Positions 2,627 through 27,801 of a stretch of DNA of 64,000 nucleotides are shown here, one piece after another. This DNA comes from a virus. A program made the translations under genes and the position numbers. The DNA lies in the IMG/VR virus record IMGVR_UViG_3300045988_103014, positions 77,780 to 141,779 of that record. One strand, written 5' to 3'. Numbering within the stretch: position 1 is the stretch's first letter; each line of letters opens with the position of its first letter. Under the pieces are notes generated by a model. That model was not told the DNA's origin and ran no database searches. It saw nothing but the letters and a program-made list of their open reading frames with translations.

Positions 2627-3607
2627 ATGGCTATCAATCTATTAGACATTCAGCCAAACAAGGTAAGTAGAGACTTGGGCGGCTATATTACTTACATCTA
2701 CGGTCCTGCCGGCGCTGGTAAGACAACATTTGGTTCTAAGATGCCAAAGCCTCTGCTTCTTGCAGCTGAGCCTGGATATAGAGCCATCCCTGGTATTCGA
2801 GCAATCGACATTACTTCATGGGGCGAGCTAAAGCAGGTATTGAGAGAGCTTAAAAAGCCAGAAGTCAAAGATGCGTATTCTTCAATCATTTGTGATACAG
2901 TAGATATTATGGCAGACCTTTGCCAGAAGTACATCTGTAATCAGTTGGGCATCGAGAACATCGGTGACGGCGGCTGGACTACAAATGGTTGGTCTAAATA
3001 TAAGAAGGAGTTTGAGGAGACTTTCCGTACTCTTGCTCAGCAGGGTTACGCAATCGTATTCCTTGGACACGCAAAGGAAAAGACTATTAAGCCACAGTTC
3101 GGTGACGAGTATCAGCAGATTTGTCCTGCACTTCAGTCTTCTGCGGCAACCATCGTTGAGAATATGTGTGATATCATCGGATATGCTCACACTTATCTTA
3201 AGGAAGGAAATTCTTACAGAGTATTAACTCTTCGTTCTGCGGATGACAGCGTACTTTGCAAGAGCCGTTTCAAGAACATCAAGCATGAGATTGATTTCTC
3301 ATATGATTCACTTGCAGAGGCACTTCATGATGCTATTGATTCTGAGGCTGATGAGCACAATGGTCAGTTCGTAACTGATGATAAGATGAAGGCAGTTGAA
3401 GCTGCAACTTACGACTATGAGGCTCTTATGGCAGAGTTCCAGGATATGGTTGGTAAGATTATGGCAAGCAACTCTAACAACGCTCCTCGTATTTCTCAGA
3501 TTGTTGAGAAGTATCTTGGTCGCGGTAAGAAGGTATCTGATACCACCGCAAACCAGGCAGAGTTAGTTTCTCTTATCGTTGGAGAAATTAAAGACGAACT
3601 TATGTAA
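2627..3607 (+). CDS. Sak4-like RecA-fold ATPase (AAA_24 type phage recombination protein)
   Basis: 326 aa. SD AAGGAGA. Walker A YGPAGAGKTT. N-terminal MAINLLDIQP... and overall layout typical of Sak4 / AAA_24 proteins. Confidence 0.75.
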   Translation: MAINLLDIQPNKVSRDLGGYITYIYGPAGAGKTTFGSKMPKPLLLAAEPGYRAIPGIRAIDITSWGELKQVLRELKKPEVKDAYSSIICDTVDIMADLCQKYICNQLGIENIGDGGWTTNGWSKYKKEFEETFRTLAQQGYAIVFLGHAKEKTIKPQFGDEYQQICPALQSSAATIVENMCDIIGYAHTYLKEGNSYRVLTLRSADDSVLCKSRFKNIKHEIDFSYDSLAEALHDAIDSEADEHNGQFVTDDKMKAVEAATYDYEALMAEFQDMVGKIMASNSNNAPRISQIVEKYLGRGKKVSDTTANQAELVSLIVGEIKDELM

Positions 3608-3627
3608 AATAAGTCACGATTTTTATA

Positions 3628-3665
3628 AAGCCGGGGTGAAATTCACCTCGGCTTGATTTTTTATT
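3628..3665 (+). terminator. Rho-independent terminator after the Sak4 gene
   Basis: Hairpin AAGCCGGGGTGAAATTCACCTCGGCTT followed by GATTTTTTATT. Confidence 0.7.
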
Positions 3666-3681
3666 AAAATTTTGATATAAT
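3652..3681 (+). promoter_or_regulatory. Sigma70-like promoter, extended -10 (TTGATT-N18-TGATATAAT)
   Basis: TTGATT at 3652-3657 overlapping the terminator T-run. TGATATAAT at 3673-3681. Followed by SD and the ATG at 3719. Confidence 0.5.
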
Positions 3682-3718
3682 ATATATGTAATGAAAATAA
3701 GGAAAGGAGTAGTAGAGA

Positions 3719-4384
3719 ATGGCACATAATGTAACCTGTCCTATTTGTACTCGAAAGTTTGACAGAGATAAAGAAGAATATGTTCAAATGAGTGCCCGCA
3801 GATATGCTCACGCAAAGTGTGCATTAAGAGAAGCAGAAAAGAACTCTACTCCAGTTCCAGAGATAATCAATCCGCTTGATAATGTGGTTTGTGAGTATTG
3901 TAAGAAACCTATGAACCGCAAAGATGAAGATTGTGTACCGTTGGGGAATGGGAAATATGCTCATCGAGAGTGTCAGCATATCGAAGATACTCGAGAATTA
4001 ACTGAGCAAGAAAAACTTGATAGATACATTATGAAGTTATTTAAGACTGATTATGTACATCAAAGAGTAAAACGACAAATCAATGACTTTATGAAACAGT
4101 ATAATTATACATACTCAGGAATAAGGAAGTCATTGACTTATTGGTATGAAGTAAAGAAACAACCAATAGAAAAAGCCAATGGTGGAATTGGAATTGTTCC
4201 ATATATTTATAAAGACGCATATAATTATTACTATATGCTATGGGAAGCGCAACAAAAGAACCAAAATAAGGATATTGAAAGTTACAAGCCAGAGGATATT
4301 GTTATTCGCGTTCCCGCTCCGCAAAGGAATATTAAAAAGCGAAAGTTGTTTACTTTCTTGGACGAGGAGGAGAATAATGGCTAG
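3719..4384 (+). CDS. Double zinc-ribbon protein with basic C-terminus, possibly a helicase loader / replication accessory protein
   Basis: 221 aa. SD AAGGAAAGGAG. Two C-x2-C...H-x2-C modules (CPIC...HAKC and CEYC...HREC). Basic tail ...RNIKKRKLFTF. 3' end overlaps the dnaB start by 8 nt. Confidence 0.5.
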   Translation: MAHNVTCPICTRKFDRDKEEYVQMSARRYAHAKCALREAEKNSTPVPEIINPLDNVVCEYCKKPMNRKDEDCVPLGNGKYAHRECQHIEDTRELTEQEKLDRYIMKLFKTDYVHQRVKRQINDFMKQYNYTYSGIRKSLTYWYEVKKQPIEKANGGIGIVPYIYKDAYNYYYMLWEAQQKNQNKDIESYKPEDIVIRVPAPQRNIKKRKLFTFLDEEENNG

Positions 4385-5912
4385 TAAATATGTAGATTTG
4401 ACTGCGGTTATGCAGGTCATCGGATGTGTGTATAACAATCCGGGATTATTAGAATTTACAGACAAATATACAATCGTTGATGAAGACTTCGCCGATGAGT
4501 TCCACAGAACGGTGTTCGGCGCAATTTATAAAATTCACGAAATGGGTGCAAATAAAATTACACTCCAACAGATTGAAGATTTCTTGAGCACAAGACCTAA
4601 ATCAGCAGCGAATTTTAAGGTTAATAAAGGTGAAGAGTGGATTGTGAAAGTATCTGACACTTGCACACCTTCAGCTTTTGATTATTACTATAACCGATTA
4701 AAGAAATTTACTTTACTCCGTGCGTATGATAATTTTGGAATTGATGTAACAGACATTTATGACCCGGACAATATCATGGATGTAAAGAAGAAACAACTCC
4801 AAGAGGATATAGTTGATAATTCAACACTTGAGCAAATCGCAGATAAAATTGATGAAAGAATTAACTCAATTCGTTTGCAATATGTTGATGACTCTTTTGG
4901 AGAGGCTTCACAGGCTGGTGAAGGTATTGACGAGTTAATTGAGAACTTTATGAAGAATCCAGAAGTCGGAGTACCTTTATATGGTTCACTTATTAACACA
5001 GTAACTCGTGGCGCAAGATTGAAAAAGTTTTATCTTCGTTCTGCGGCAACTGGTGTTGGTAAGACTCGTAGTATGATTGCGGATTCATGTTATATCGCTT
5101 GTTCAAAAATCTACGATGATACTTTTGGTTGGATTAGAACTGGTGGCGGTAATGAACCAGTATTGTTTATTACAACTGAGCAGGAATTAGCTGAAATTCA
5201 GACAATGATGTTAGCATTTATCTCAGGTGTAAATGAAGACCATATCTTAAATGGTAAATATCTCGGAGATGAATTAGACCGAGTAATGCAAGCAAAGGAA
5301 ATCTTAAAAGCAGCTCCATTATATGTTGAAGAGTTGCCAGACTTCTCGCTGAAAGATGTTGAAGATAAGATTAAGAAAAACATTCGTGACCACGATGTAA
5401 AATATGTGTTTCACGATTATATACATACTTCTATGAAAATCTTGGAAGAGATTACAAGACGAAGTGGTGGTATTAAGTTAAGAGAAGATAATATCCTATT
5501 TATGTTATCAAACAAATTAAAGGATATTTGTAATAAATATGGTATCTTCATTATGTCAGCTACACAGTTGAATGGAGATTATCAGACAAGTGAGACCCCT
5601 GACCAGAACTTATTGCGTGGTGCAAAGGCGATTGCGGATAAGATTGACTTTGGTGCAATTTTATTGTTAGCAAAACAGGAAGACCACGAAGCATTAACTG
5701 AAATCTTAAACTCAAATGTTTTTGATAAACCAACAATTAAAATGTCAATTTACAAAAACAGACGAGGAAGATATAAGGGTGTTTATCTTTGGTGTAAAGC
5801 AGATTTGGGTTGCTGTCGTATTGAGCCAATGTTCTGTACGACTTGGGACTACGAACTGGTTGACATAAATAATATCAAGATTATGATTGAAGAAGAATCA
5901 AGTGCATTCTAG
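4377..5912 (+). CDS. dnaB: DnaB-type replicative DNA helicase
   Basis: About 511 aa from the ATG at 4377 (SD GGAGGAG). The ORF track begins upstream at 4179 in the same frame. DnaB N-domain, Walker A LRSAATGVGKTRS, C-terminal RecA-like domain. Confidence 0.85.
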   Translation: MASKYVDLTAVMQVIGCVYNNPGLLEFTDKYTIVDEDFADEFHRTVFGAIYKIHEMGANKITLQQIEDFLSTRPKSAANFKVNKGEEWIVKVSDTCTPSAFDYYYNRLKKFTLLRAYDNFGIDVTDIYDPDNIMDVKKKQLQEDIVDNSTLEQIADKIDERINSIRLQYVDDSFGEASQAGEGIDELIENFMKNPEVGVPLYGSLINTVTRGARLKKFYLRSAATGVGKTRSMIADSCYIACSKIYDDTFGWIRTGGGNEPVLFITTEQELAEIQTMMLAFISGVNEDHILNGKYLGDELDRVMQAKEILKAAPLYVEELPDFSLKDVEDKIKKNIRDHDVKYVFHDYIHTSMKILEEITRRSGGIKLREDNILFMLSNKLKDICNKYGIFIMSATQLNGDYQTSETPDQNLLRGAKAIADKIDFGAILLLAKQEDHEALTEILNSNVFDKPTIKMSIYKNRRGRYKGVYLWCKADLGCCRIEPMFCTTWDYELVDINNIKIMIEEESSAF

Positions 5913-24432: not shown

Positions 24433-24443
24433 TCCAAAATTAA

Positions 24444-24480
24444 GGGGAGAGTATATATAATACTCTCCCCTTTTTTATTT
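24444..24480. terminator. Bidirectional rho-independent terminator between the convergent early and late modules
   Basis: Perfect hairpin GGGGAGAGTATATATAATACTCTCCCC with T-runs on both sides. Confidence 0.85.
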
Positions 24481-24678
24481 TCCAGACTCCCAATGCGGCT
24501 CATCTTGCGATTCCATTGCGGCAACAATGGTGCAATAATAAACTGTCTCTGCGAGGTCTTTAATCATATCAACTACTTCGCCCATTTCGGAGGTGCAAAC
24601 TCCATCAAGATTATCTAGTTGGTCATGAACTTTATCTGTTAAAGCGTGTTGAATTTCATTTAGCATTTCAATATCCAT
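24475..24678 (-). CDS. Small acidic protein, hypothetical (cassette gene 5)
   Basis: 67 aa. SD AAAGGGTGG. Confidence 0.45.
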   Translation of the reverse strand: MDIEMLNEIQHALTDKVHDQLDNLDGVCTSEMGEVVDMIKDLAETVYYCTIVAAMESQDEPHWESGK

Positions 24679-24679
24679 T

Positions 24680-25114
24680 TTACGCCACCCTTTCTACAAT
24701 CAAATTTGCATTTTGAATATCAATATCAATTCCACTTGTGATATTCTTAATTGCGATTGTGGTGCAACATCCAATAGGAACATCGACTAAAAATTCTGTT
24801 CCAACACTATATGTTGAAGTGGTGTCTCCAACAGTAATAGTCATTGTGGATGTTGGGATTGTCTCGCCATCGCGCGATGCTGCGAGGGATAATAAAGTTA
24901 CTCCGATGATAGTTTCATCGGCATTGGCTTTCATGTTACCTGTAAAAGTAACACGGAATCTTGCGCGGCGCTGTCCATTTGGCAACCCGCGCAAAGTTAC
25001 TAAGCCACTATCCTCTACATGAATAATACTACAATTACCAGGTACTACTGTTGTAGTAAATAATACATTATCGTTTGAAACGACTTTTTGAATAGTATTA
25101 GCAGTAATTTCCAT
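24680..25114 (-). CDS. Beta-rich small protein, hypothetical (cassette gene 4)
   Basis: 144 aa. SD AAGGAGG 6 nt before the ATG. Thr/Val/Ile-rich. Confidence 0.55.
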   Translation of the reverse strand: MEITANTIQKVVSNDNVLFTTTVVPGNCSIIHVEDSGLVTLRGLPNGQRRARFRVTFTGNMKANADETIIGVTLLSLAASRDGETIPTSTMTITVGDTTSTYSVGTEFLVDVPIGCCTTIAIKNITSGIDIDIQNANLIVERVA

Positions 25115-25129
25115 AATGTACCTCCTTAA

Positions 25130-25828
25130 TTAACCATTAAACTGATTACCAAAGAATGGGCCTGGATTATAAGGTCCGTAGAAAGGAGCATAACCAGCAT
25201 TATAAGTTGCAGACATAGGATATCTTACGACACCGCTAAGTGCGCCCTGTAACTGCAACTGGTTAATCTGATTCTGCATATCAGCCATACGGTTTCCAGT
25301 TAATACGTCGAGAATCTTCTGGGTCTGCGCGCAATTACTTGCTAACAACTCTTTTGTATTAAGAAGGTTGTCGTATCTAATGGAATCAATATTCTGCTGA
25401 ACTGCGGCAAAACCCTTTCCAATTTCGTAGCCATTCTGTGCTACTGCGTCTTTGACATCACGAATGTCTGAATCTAACGCTACTGCGTTATCTTTCAATT
25501 CTCCGTTAATATCATATGCAACATCTTTTAGCATTGACTGAGTATAGTTAATGCCATCTTTTACTGCGCCAGTTACATCATATGAAGCCTGATGAATGTT
25601 ATCAATGATGCTCTGGTTTTGTCTTTCTAATGAAGCGAAGTTAAAATCATTCTGCACTTCATTTGCTGTTGCGGCACGTCCGTTATTTCCCCATGAGCCT
25701 CCGCCCATGAAACAGAATAAGAAGAGAATGATAATCCACCATGCTCCTCCATCATTTCCGAACATACCATTGTTTCCTGTAGCGGCTGCTACGTCGGCTA
25801 AAGAATAGCCATAGTTTTGATTGAACAT
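25130..25828 (-). CDS. Single-pass membrane protein with Gly/Asn-rich N-terminus and Tyr/Gly/Pro/Phe-rich C-terminal tail (cassette gene 3)
   Basis: 232 aa. SD AAGGAGG. TM segment WWIIILFLFCFMGG. C-terminal ...YNAGYAPFYGPYNPGPFFGNQFNG. Confidence 0.6.
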   Translation of the reverse strand: MFNQNYGYSLADVAAATGNNGMFGNDGGAWWIIILFLFCFMGGGSWGNNGRAATANEVQNDFNFASLERQNQSIIDNIHQASYDVTGAVKDGINYTQSMLKDVAYDINGELKDNAVALDSDIRDVKDAVAQNGYEIGKGFAAVQQNIDSIRYDNLLNTKELLASNCAQTQKILDVLTGNRMADMQNQINQLQLQGALSGVVRYPMSATYNAGYAPFYGPYNPGPFFGNQFNG

Positions 25829-25851
25829 ATTTTGTTCCTCCTTAAAATTTA

Positions 25852-26094
25852 TTATTTAACTCCAAGCTGTTGCTTGAATGAGTTAAATTCTTCGTCAAAG
25901 TCGACGCCGCGCTGTGTACATACGTTTCGAGCAACCTGCTCGATACCTGCGGCGTCACCTCGCTGCGCAAGACTCAATAGGTTTGCACCCATAGGAGTTC
26001 GACTAAATTCCCCTTGTAAGTATTGCAACATTAACTGTTGTGGGTTTGCGCCTCCTCGAATCATGCGTAGAATATTCATCATGTCAAAGTTCAT
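25852..26094 (-). CDS. Hypothetical small protein (cassette gene 2)
   Basis: 80 aa. SD AAGGAGG 7 nt before the ATG. Confidence 0.5.
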   Translation of the reverse strand: MNFDMMNILRMIRGGANPQQLMLQYLQGEFSRTPMGANLLSLAQRGDAAGIEQVARNVCTQRGVDFDEEFNSFKQQLGVK

Positions 26095-26106
26095 TTTGCT
26101 ACCTCC

Positions 26107-26463
26107 TTAAAATTGAAAATCTTGCGCAGGCTTAGTGTCTGCGTCCTGTTGGATTGGTTTGGGAATTACTCCCTTGATTTGTTCGATAACTTTCTCGAAC
26201 TCTTCTCGTGTGACATAGCTGGGATTAGCTGTAGTTAGCTCTACTGGATTATTTTTTAGTTCATAAACTTGGAGTAAGGGAGAGCCATCAAATCCTATCT
26301 GCTTTGTATAAATTTTTTTATTCGCTATGTCAGGGAAGAAAAATATAGAGCCATCGAAATCAATTTGTGCGGCTCTAACTTCATCGAGAGAAGCTACTTG
26401 GCGACCTTTGAGAATAGGCATCATCTGTCGCATTTGGGTGGGTTGATAATAACTGTTGTACAT
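26107..26463 (-). CDS. Hypothetical protein (cassette gene 1)
   Basis: 118 aa. First gene downstream of the tandem terminators. AGAAGGT SD-like. Confidence 0.5.
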   Translation of the reverse strand: MYNSYYQPTQMRQMMPILKGRQVASLDEVRAAQIDFDGSIFFFPDIANKKIYTKQIGFDGSPLLQVYELKNNPVELTTANPSYVTREEFEKVIEQIKGVIPKPIQQDADTKPAQDFQF

Positions 26464-26570
26464 TTTTTTACCTTCTTTCTACTAAATTTTTTCCATCCCT
26501 CTCATGTATACTTGATTTTTATTTGGGAATGATTTTCCAGTTTTGTCACAACGAATTTCCAGGACGAGAA

Positions 26571-26653
26571 CAAAAAAAAATGGGGGACGCCATTAAGCGT
26601 CCCCCAAGGGCAAAAAAAATAAAGGGAACACTGATTCAGTGTTCCCTTTTTTC
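26571..26653 (-). terminator. Two tandem hairpin terminators downstream of the holin gene
   Basis: GGGGGACGCCATTAAGCGTCCCCC (26582-26605) and GGGAACACTGATTCAGTGTTCCC (26624-26646), each followed by a U-run on the minus strand. The second also has a T-run on the plus strand. Confidence 0.75.
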
Positions 26654-27049
26654 TTATTTACATTCGTTTACACAAGCCTCAATCTGAGTTGTAAGATATA
26701 CATTCAAATCTCCAAAAGCCTCAGTCAAAATAGCTTTTGCTTCTTCACTTAAAATCTGTTCAACAGCTAATGCAGTCTTTGAAAAAGCAGCTTTCTGCGC
26801 CTCTGGGTCAAACTTACCTTGAGCCTTTAATGTGTTAACATATGTCTGATTTGTTGCAATTACACAAGCAGTAATTGTATCTGCTGCGATTGCAATATAC
26901 TTGTCAAGTAAGTCATTCTGTGACTGAATAACAAGCTGGTCGCTCTTTGCCTTAATATACTTTACAAGAAAAGCAGTAAGAACGCCCAATAGAGGAATTA
27001 CACATACCTCAAAAATTTCTGTTAATAGTTGTAATACTTCAGGTGTCAT
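26654..27049 (-). CDS. Holin, LL-H-like family (single N-terminal TM + long soluble tail)
   Basis: 131 aa. SD AGGAGG. TM CVIPLLGVLTAFLV followed by KYIKAKSDQ... matches the organisation of LL-H-type holins. ATGA overlap with the upstream gene. Confidence 0.55.
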   Translation of the reverse strand: MTPEVLQLLTEIFEVCVIPLLGVLTAFLVKYIKAKSDQLVIQSQNDLLDKYIAIAADTITACVIATNQTYVNTLKAQGKFDPEAQKAAFSKTALAVEQILSEEAKAILTEAFGDLNVYLTTQIEACVNECK

Positions 27050-27801
27050 AAACTATAACCTCCTATTTTTCTTTTATAATGAACAGAGTCTAATAAATAA
27101 TCTACTCCTTCATCTTCATCATCTGACCAGGCGGATGCTATTGTATAGTTACCACCTTCATTGAATGAATTGTGAAGAGTTTTAAGTAGATGAATAAAAT
27201 CCTCTGAATTCATATCTGATATAAAAATAACATATTGTCCATCTTCGCCAGTATAGCATCTCATTGCGTTACAAATAATACGGCAACGATTAAGAACATC
27301 TATACTATCAGTTTTCAATAAAATTACTCCAAGAGATGCACCAAAGTCTCTGCGGAAATGATTGATTGCGGCCTCAAGCTGTTCAGCTTTTGCAACCTTC
27401 GAACGAGCCTCCGCGAAACTATCTTCTAATACTTTATCGTTGATTTCTTTGATTACTAAAATAACCTCATTTGTGGTCTTATAATCTTTTGGTTTATAAA
27501 ACTCAGCGCATACCCACTTATATGAGTTTGCCGCGGTTAATCTACGATAGTAGCAGTTTAATGGTGAATTCTCTTTCTTAAAATGTCTCTTTACTGCGTA
27601 GATATCAACGAAATGTAAAAAGTATGGAATATCAAGCGGGTGAACATGAGTTCCCGCATATTTCATACACCAGTTTGTGATTGCGCGGTCAAGGACTTTT
27701 TCTTCTTTTGGAAGTTTAATAACTTCAAATTCTTCTGTAACTAAGTTGATTTTTAACACTTTTGAATAAGTGTCAAGTAGAAATTGCTCTAGATTTAGCA
27801 T
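27046..27801 (-). CDS. Hypothetical protein translationally coupled to the holin, candidate lysis-associated protein
   Basis: 251 aa. SD AAGGAGG. No signal peptide or TM. No recognisable murein-hydrolase motif. Confidence 0.6.
   Translation of the reverse strand: MLNLEQFLLDTYSKVLKINLVTEEFEVIKLPKEEKVLDRAITNWCMKYAGTHVHPLDIPYFLHFVDIYAVKRHFKKENSPLNCYYRRLTAANSYKWVCAEFYKPKDYKTTNEVILVIKEINDKVLEDSFAEARSKVAKAEQLEAAINHFRRDFGASLGVILLKTDSIDVLNRCRIICNAMRCYTGEDGQYVIFISDMNSEDFIHLLKTLHNSFNEGGNYTIASAWSDDEDEGVDYLLDSVHYKRKIGGYSL

Follow-up and report, generated by a model that had tools for sequence, protein, structure and literature searches.

A run of small genes that belong to no described family, lying where the late and early genes of a phage meet, raises the question of whether it is a peculiarity of one genome or a functional unit in its own right, and of what its products might do. 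The run considered here lies in a 64-kb stretch of DNA (64,000 nucleotides, positions 77,780 to 141,779 of IMG/VR virus record IMGVR_UViG_3300045988_103014; the window) from a jumbo phage of approximately 194 kb, and consists of five open reading frames (ORFs), named g118, g80, g232, g144 and g67 by the lengths of their products in amino acids. Comparison with other phages shows this cassette to be an autonomous, horizontally mobile, moron-like unit, conserved in content and order across lineages, and it is tentatively proposed that its products act at the host cytoplasmic membrane in superinfection exclusion or in a related conflict at the cell envelope.

The distribution of the cassette was assessed across 115 loci gathered by means of g144 alone, in which the other members were then sought by iterated hidden Markov model searches. 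Many of these loci are near-duplicates, although the set still includes contigs of 30 to 200 kb, the cultured Butyrivibrio phage Ceridwen and three Dulem viruses from the lemur gut. In 115 of 115 loci the detected members share one order and one strand and lie within 4.5 kb. Over the 95 loci with enough upstream DNA, a homologue of g232 was detected in 94, of g118 in 89, of the g67 family in 72 and of g80 in 54, the loci without a detected g80 usually harboring in its slot a second type of small Gln-rich protein, or else recoded stop codons. The five ORFs are real genes, because the same array is present, identically arranged, on four further contigs and because their products belong to large families, with 3838 relatives of g144, 993 of g232 and at least 6588 of g118. 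A nucleotide search of the region matched only one distant phage record.

The site at which the cassette is found varies, and at least six distinct genomic contexts are apparent across lineages. It follows the holin gene in the jumbo relatives and the lysis genes in Ceridwen, lies between the lysis genes and the integrase gene in Dulem virus 33 and after the integrase gene in Dulem virus 39, is situated among early genes, between antirepressor and gam/erf, in Clostridium perfringens phage XP41-N3, and is placed between the minor head protein and scaffold genes, bracketed by terminators, in an abundant 42-kb gut siphophage (the type of locus L066). Varied insertion sites, flanking terminators (in the window and in L066) and a conserved promoter-like element, of presumed promoter activity, are the features by which a moron is recognized. 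The preliminary description of this locus had suggested a moron or accessory type, and this view is supported, as the cassette moves as a unit, sits at different places and carries its own promoter-like element and terminators. Its absence as a unit from related phages, which had been named as an observation that would speak against such a view, was not encountered, the cassette being conserved as a unit; nor is it a peculiarity of this genome, being a common element of which gut phages contain thousands of copies.

Within the window the cassette is both compact and clearly delimited (Table 1). All five ORFs are present on the minus strand where they had been reported, separated from g118 through g67 by gaps of 12, 23, 15 and 1 nt. 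The uniform AAGGAGG Shine-Dalgarno sequences attributed to them are, however, exact in only three of the five (g80, g232 and g144), those of g118 and g67 being GAAAGAAGG and AAAGGGTGG, respectively. The double terminator described after the holin gene and the bidirectional terminator described downstream of the cassette were each recovered as hairpins, in a region where 12 terminator-like sites are observed against 3.2 expected from shuffled sequences. The cumulative GC skew reaches its maximum at the bidirectional terminator, as would be expected because transcription converges there. Upstream of g118 lies a two-part element with the consensus TTWGGACA, approximately 30 nt, and then TTTATATAnTAATGAAAGG, which ends approximately 40 nt before the start codon of the first gene and whose proximal part, GTATACATGAGAGGG, resembles a -10 box followed by a purine-rich leader. 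At least 16 lineages have both halves, with the same spacing, ahead of their first cassette gene. The strict pattern of the proximal half has zero other intergenic matches within the window, while looser patterns of the element give chance-level matches there. The cross-lineage comparison and the uniqueness of the strict pattern uphold the earlier remark that the promoter region is unlike the early consensus, and the flanking terminators, together with this conserved element, support the cassette as a separately delimited transcription unit at the boundary of the late and early genes, as had been claimed. A sporulation-sigma promoter was considered as a main idea and rejected, as no consistent -35 box was seen and homologues occur in phages of non-sporulating hosts.

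Table 1. Coordinates of the cassette and of adjoining features in the window
Feature	Position	Strand	Remarks
g118	26107-26463	minus	118 aa (amino acids); ORF 1 of the cassette
g80	25852-26094	minus	80 aa
g232	25130-25828	minus	232 aa
g144	24680-25114	minus	144 aa
g67	24475-24678	minus	67 aa
Promoter-like element, two-part	26497-26540	minus	distal CTGGAAAA, proximal GTATACATGAGAGGG; putative promoter
Intrinsic terminator 1 after holin	26621-26649	minus	13-bp stem, then T run; ends the late operon
Intrinsic terminator 2 after holin	26581-26606	minus	11-bp stem with 8 GC pairs, then T run
Bidirectional terminator	24442-24472	both	13-bp stem scoring on both strands; shared with the converging early operon
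Holin gene upstream of the cassette	26654-27049		phrog_13712, E 3e-32
ORF upstream of holin	27046-27801		251 aa; no family match
Ten large late ORFs	33907-63863		matches only to a BspA-type leucine-rich repeat (2475-aa ORF) and a phage tail-fiber repeat (1826-aa ORF)

The neighbors on the plus strand are of early type (dUTPase, RuvC, NrdD/NrdG, guanylate kinase and the DNA polymerase III alpha subunit), whereas those on the minus strand are giant tail-fiber-like ORFs. An identical g144 protein is encoded on a 194-kb contig and a relative on one of 211 kb, which places the window in a jumbo phage. The window reads cleanly with the standard genetic code. In jumbo-phage relatives (L009-L012, L018, L020, L025, L030, L050, L062, L063, L089, L093, L095 and L097), TAG is read as glutamine: 21 of the 21 in-frame stops in g144 homologues are TAG and fall, by eye, at Gln positions of other members (VN*AVLF versus VNQPVLF). 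The density of such recoding was considered as a clock of late expression and proved uninformative, the recoding being genome-wide and on both strands in these relatives.

Additional genes accompany the cassette in other lineages, encoding a sigma-region-4-like protein, a C39-like Cys peptidase, a long form of g67 and an HExxH protein of approximately 105 aa. Genes of the HExxH, C39-like and sigma-region-4-like types were sought in the window, and none is present. The HExxH protein occurs in 66 of 121 loci and C39-like genes in 23 of 121, a C39-like gene (phrog_3754) opening the cassette in both Ceridwen and Dulem virus 33. In L066, the gene immediately before the cassette encodes a 73-aa sigma-factor-region-4-like protein (phrog_1190, E 5e-5; 4115-4336), is followed by a terminator and may represent a dedicated regulator; in Ceridwen, an ORF of the same size (L001, 3632-3853) occupies the equivalent position and has no PHROG or Pfam match. 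Detected relatives of the two occur in 21 of the 121 loci. A terminator-like hairpin between the g232 and g144 homologues of L066 (5943-5968) may attenuate transcription within the cassette. Two cassettes are interrupted, that of Dulem virus 33 by an annotated endonuclease gene on the opposite strand (L002, 4413-4964, minus) and that of Ceridwen by a 264-aa ORF of no annotated function (L001, 6512-7306), and both insertions are read as putative HNH/homing-endonuclease-type elements.

The protein that defines the reach of the cassette is g232. Its AlphaFold2 model consists of a short helix (residues 29 to 41), one continuous helix of 144 residues (55 to 198; approximately 21 nm) and disordered ends, and a fold search with this model was uninformative, the model being a single helix. 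The short hydrophobic helix is flanked by Trp and Gly and almost devoid of neighboring Lys or Arg residues, while the disordered tail is rich in Tyr, Gly, Pro and Phe, which agrees with the earlier reading of a membrane-type protein with such a tail. The conserved N-terminal motif of g232 is YSLADVAAATGNN, that of the family (alignment A3) being YSLADIAAVTGGN; other hallmarks of the family are Asn/Gln-rich repeats, a nearly invariant CCC, ASQxAQNxYL, RPxPxPAY and a CGCGC-type C terminus. The leader-like motif SLADIAAVTGG is found in many members, the window copy ending in GN. Membership of g232 is indicated by its match to phrog_16490 (E 8e-10), by phmmer matches to family members and by alignment A3, and its architecture is that of the phrog_16490/phrog_9288 family, with the N-terminal Trp/Gly-flanked hydrophobic helix, the long helical region and the ASQxAQN...PxPxPAY segment. 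Nevertheless, FAA replaces CCC in the window copy, no Cys is present in its last 25 residues, the Tyr/Gly/Pro/Phe tail stands in place of the Cys-rich tail of the family, and its Cys count is 2 against 7 to 17 in the other 39 members. Judged by its sequence, g232 is, therefore, a Cys-depleted member of a "CCC" family. A relative with 65% identity (L059) retains both Cys features, and the g144 of the window retains an invariant GCC motif.

A weak match of the g232-family profile to influenza HA2 (E 2e-4, 23.5 bits) covers a low-complexity Gly/Trp-rich and helical region and probably reflects a likeness of layout and composition rather than homology. The layout of g232 is also similar to that of an i-spanin, except that a tail of 26 to 56 aa precedes the hydrophobic helix and that the window copy lacks Cys.

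The second protein with a recognizable design is g144, which had been described as beta-rich and is indeed all-beta, the protein starting at its first beta strand and its model being a ten-strand jelly roll superposable on the BclA C-terminal domain (BclA-CTD), C1q and TNF. It is predicted to be a stand-alone TNF/C1q/BclA-CTD-like fold, presumably forming a trimer. Its best structural matches are exosporium and endospore-appendage proteins, and the fold also matches phage proteins, namely, those of cyanophage A-1(L), TM4 gp23 and PRD1 P5. No export signal is present, and the best 120 relatives are all 139 to 145 aa in length.

The remaining products are small. The g80 family is helical and rich in Met and Gln (family medians of 9.1% and 14.1%, against 2.3% and 3.3% in the ORFs of the window; alignment A6). 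This composition is a lead, though only a lead, to a possible holdase role of g80 toward the g232 hydrophobic helix; an STI1/SGTA-like domain was sought in g80 and found in neither Pfam nor PDB matches. In g118 (alignment A2), which lacks an export signal, a Tyr/Gln/Pro-rich N terminus is followed by a conserved beta core of approximately 60 aa and by an amphipathic helix at the C terminus; the protein matches phrog_21718, and its relatives, all of 140 to 175 aa, have neither a Pfam domain nor a name. The g67 protein, acidic and helical, equals the N-terminal domain alone of a family of 140 to 250 aa that occupies the same slot elsewhere (phmmer E 4e-13 against the long forms; alignment A5), the long forms adding an RDxREGRSPxxRRxYMESKE motif and C-terminal helices.

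Searches of Pfam, NCBIfam, PADLOC and PHROGs with the five proteins returned only PHROG families of unassigned function, and sequence and profile searches of the PDB with g118, g80, the long g67, g144 and g232 returned nothing beyond the HA2 match. The preliminary description had held that none of the five matches anything recognizable, and this stands insofar as no described family is represented among them; it does not stand for g144, with its TNF/C1q/BclA-CTD fold, or for g232, whose family has been labeled by others. The idea of a defense or anti-defense locus found no positive evidence, the sole PADLOC-DB match being ZorA, below threshold (E 0.027, 11 bits) and not significant. No account of the cassette was found in the literature searched.

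Homologues of g232 extend well beyond the phages that carry the full cassette. C. perfringens siphophages carry one, their g144 slot being taken by another beta protein that is rich in Cys. So do many crAss-like phages, as well as one Bacteroides phage in culture; in these, beta, coiled-coil and HExxH genes come after the homologue, which is annotated as "spike protein/glycoprotein" or "outer capsid protein/viral fiber," the former label probably being explained by the likeness to HA2. In the crAss-like phage cr116_1, the module lies near the lysis genes and next to capsid genes. Enterobacterial carriers include Hanrivervirus (BASEL phage Bas06), Sashavirus, JenK1-like phages, the T5-like Epseptimavirus and Yersinia phage PY100, the link to these resting on tblastn, a cross-match to phrog_9288 and the shared CCCET and ASQ motifs; the Bas06 homologue is labeled "putative sugar-binding protein." In Hanrivervirus (L118, Bas06 3168-4992) and in PY100 (L121/L122, ORF29-32), the g232 homologue stands first in a conserved module of four genes (phrog_9288, 9157, 8329 and 7239). 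In Hanrivervirus, the homologue and its three partner genes follow the tail-fiber genes, while in PY100 the module stands alone in reading rightward, the early genes around it reading leftward, and the structural genes are 10 kb away. The Epseptimavirus homologue lies immediately after a pb5-like receptor-binding gene (L120, Salmonella phage polluks, 3791-4426), and its copies are often fragmentary and only partly annotated, or unannotated. Homologues are also found in viruses assigned to Methanomassiliicoccales, which are predicted archaeal viruses. The beta and adaptor partners of the crAss-like, Escherichia coli and C. perfringens modules, when compared with g144 and g118 by hhalign, showed no homology (probabilities below 1%), and, by sequence comparison, g232 is the only component demonstrably common to these distant modules.

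How such proteins might work together is suggested by their predicted structures, which make it probable that the cassette products assemble stoichiometrically into a single complex at the cytoplasmic membrane of the host. In this complex, g232 would supply both a hydrophobic helix as anchor and a coiled-coil stalk of approximately 21 nm, and g144 a TNF-like trimeric head, such that the two together would resemble a type II TNF ligand split into two polypeptides; g80 would keep the hydrophobic helix of g232 soluble until its insertion into the membrane, and g118 and g67 would serve as adaptors. With a promoter of its own to free its expression from the late operon, the complex would guard the infected or lysogenic cell at its envelope by blocking the entry of the genomes of other phages at the cytoplasmic membrane. 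We consider a function of this kind, in superinfection exclusion or another envelope-level conflict, possible and prefer it as a working proposal, though not one to be called probable. The cytoplasmic membrane is favored as the shared target because the g232 family spans phages of Firmicutes, Bacteroidota and Enterobacteria as well as predicted archaeal viruses, whose hosts all have this structure in common. Several features count toward exclusion: the cassette is built like a moron, two terminators decouple it from the late operon, its genes are tightly coupled, and in temperate phages (Dulem virus 33) it occupies the classical lysogenic-conversion site. The decay of the T5-like copies of g232 counts likewise, since decay is expected of a dispensable conflict gene. 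The enterobacterial positions may be added by analogy: T1 carries cor in the slot after its tail-fiber genes, where Hanrivervirus has the g232 homologue, and T5 carries llp in the slot after the receptor-binding gene, where Epseptimavirus has it.

Several points weigh against this proposal. None of the five proteins is homologous to a known exclusion or defense protein in the libraries searched, and the known exclusion systems are, to our knowledge, single proteins rather than five-gene sets. An export signal is absent from four of the five, for which reason a role outside the membrane is hard to picture, and the topology of g232 is undefined and its constitutive insertion not assured, because its helix is almost without flanking Lys or Arg. 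The g232-g144 complex is itself a prediction, and the analogy with cor and llp is one of position, the slot in question being the end of a late operon that may be open to any moron. Many versions of the cassette, furthermore, carry a small metallopeptidase or a C39-like peptidase, which exclusion leaves unexplained.

The position of the cassette directly downstream of the holin gene, in the window as in the jumbo relatives, suggests instead a part in lysis, in which g232 would be a triggered membrane-disrupting or fusion-like protein that aids or regulates the holin, with g144 and the small proteins as cofactors or chaperones. Analogues are found in the xepA-xhlA-xhlB-xlyA set of PBSX and in spanins, and multigene lysis sets with chaperones are known. 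Lysis genes also lie near the cassette in Ceridwen, Dulem virus 33 and cr116_1; the hydrophobic Gly/Trp helix without flanking positive charges is fusion-peptide-like; the family profile weakly matches HA2; three of the five genes have consensus ribosome-binding sites; and family-library scans of the window found no endolysin domain near the holin gene. Two terminators nevertheless part the cassette from that gene, and its promoter-like element is different and conserved. The module is far from the lysis genes in T1-like phages, which we take to carry a full lysis set elsewhere, in PY100, whose endolysin gene lies elsewhere, and in the L066-type and C. perfringens phages, while the decay of T5-like copies is likewise at odds with such a part. 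A strict spanin was ruled out, as none of the five proteins contains a lipobox, leaving no lipoprotein partner, and a monoderm envelope is common among the hosts, C. perfringens and Butyrivibrio phages being carriers of homologous cassettes. On this balance, a lysis accessory appears rather unlikely.

A broader proposal, which we regard as doubtful, is that the g232 family forms the core of an undescribed membrane-acting, fusion-protein-like machine of tailed viruses. Here g232 would comprise a leader, an uncharged hydrophobic peptide and the 21-nm helix. It would depend for its solubility on the Met/Gln-rich holdase, for its priming, in many lineages, on a small peptidase, and for its guidance on the TNF-like trimer or other beta proteins. 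Such a mobile cassette of bacterial and archaeal tailed viruses would serve a step at the cytoplasmic membrane that lies outside the current models of infection, exclusion and lysis.

The preliminary description had named ordinary virion components as the finding that would overturn its view of the cassette, and gene position makes a virion role unlikely. An accessory version of that role can still be formulated, in which g232 would be a penetration or ejection protein, comparable to phiX174 H or the fusogenic segment of T5 pb2, and g144 a receptor-binding or decoration head, both being put together in the cytoplasm for use in the following infection. The partner proteins are all cytoplasmic, g232 combines a fusion-peptide-like helix with a long one, TNF-like heads are common at phage fiber tips (cyanophage A-1(L), TM4 gp23 and PRD1 P5), and the cassette lies within the head module of L066-type phages and adjoins capsid genes in cr116_1; the frequent peptidases could mature g232, and g80 could chaperone its hydrophobic helix. 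The variable position of the cassette, mostly outside structural modules and in PY100 in a divergent unit well removed from them, argues against this, as do its own promoter-like element and terminators, its dispensability and decay in T5-like phages, and the absence from g144 of an N-terminal shaft for attachment to a fiber. In addition, the 35 records that the crAss-type protein matches do not include ΦcrAss001, a member of the cr116_1 family in crAss taxonomy. A virion accessory is accordingly judged unlikely.

The peptidases that exclusion leaves unexplained would find a role in a protease-primed pore, an abortive or bacteriocin-like effector in which a C39-like or HExxH peptidase removes a double-glycine-type leader from g232 and frees a pore-forming helix, a logic likened to that of gasdermin or of a bacteriocin. 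In alignment, the (Y)SLADIAAVTGG(N) motif fits LSxxELxxIxGG, the double-glycine leader consensus; the C39-like gene that opens the Ceridwen and Dulem virus 33 cassettes, the frequency of the HExxH protein and the uncharged hydrophobic helix fit as well. However, the cassette of the window lacks any peptidase and carries GN, not GG, at the end of its motif, Ceridwen has the C39-like gene yet lacks the SLADIAA motif, no PADLOC match rises above noise, and suicide defense is ill suited to a virulent jumbo phage, all of which renders such an effector improbable. Most improbable of all is a conversion of the spore or cell surface, with g144 (BclA-CTD/ExsFA-like) and Cys/Tyr-rich partners built into the spore coat, exosporium or surface layer of clostridial hosts: the top structural matches of g144, the Cys and Tyr/Gly/Pro richness of the family, which recalls coat proteins, and the superficial likeness of the proximal element, [CT]ATAnnnTA, to the CATAnnnTA-like -10 boxes of sporulation sigma factors are outweighed by the occurrence of g232 homologues in E. 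coli, Bacteroides and archaeal phages or viruses, by the jumbo-phage setting, the examined parts of the window having shown no integrase or other lysogeny gene, by Butyrivibrio fibrisolvens not being known to sporulate, by the lack of a matching -35 box on inspection of the aligned upstream regions and by the want in g144 of a collagen-like stalk and an N-terminal targeting region.

A membrane complex acting in exclusion or envelope conflict thus remains the proposal that we prefer, and the core protein offers a means of approaching it. All five proteins belong to large phage families without a name, a Pfam entry or a published function, and g232 links jumbo gut phages, clostridial prophages, crAss-like, T1-, T5- and PY100-like phages and predicted archaeal viruses, so that a function found in one tractable system could be transferred to thousands of genes now listed as "hypothetical." One tractable carrier of the core gene is KarlJaspers (Bas06), an E. 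coli phage of the BASEL collection, through its genes 31 to 34.

Comparison with known systems sets the cassette apart from each while showing where it touches them. Llp of T5 and Cor of T1/phi80 are single small lipoproteins that plug FhuA; the genomic niche is alike, g232 homologues following receptor-binding or tail-fiber genes and being accessory and often lost, whereas the cassette comprises five genes, encodes no lipoprotein and occurs also in phages of hosts without an outer membrane. With XepA/XhlA of PBSX and with Rz/Rz1 it shares a membrane coiled-coil protein and a beta-rich oligomer (in g144, a predicted one) beside a holin, as well as coiled-coil Cys residues as in Rz; it differs in having no sequence similarity and no lipoprotein partner, in its monoderm and archaeal hosts, in the terminators that part it from the holin gene and in its distance from lysis genes in several lineages. 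Influenza HA2 resembles g232 in its Gly/Trp-rich hydrophobic segment, long helix and Cys residues, although g232 has neither a receptor-binding subunit nor a C-terminal transmembrane helix and tailed phages have no envelope. The likeness of the helical, Met/Gln-rich g80 family, with its NPxQ-type repeats, to the SGTA/Sgt2 C-domain and the SRP54 M-domain is one of composition only. For g144, the fold is like that of BclA-CTD, F-BclA, ExsFA/BxpB and C1q/TNF at a sequence identity of only 14 to 16%, and, in contrast to BclA-type fibers, the protein has no collagen-like (GXX)n stalk, no N-terminal attachment or exosporium-targeting region and no export signal, and is encoded in a phage cassette beside a membrane coiled-coil protein. 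If g232 and g144 associate, their layout would match the tail, transmembrane helix, stalk and TNF domain of type II TNF ligands, albeit split into two polypeptides, with no detectable homology and with a 144-residue helix as the stalk. The cassette fits the known moron concept, while the design of its proteins and its breadth are unusual; for a tailed phage, it is unusual to encode a predicted stand-alone TNF-like trimer next to a coiled-coil stalk with a predicted membrane anchor.

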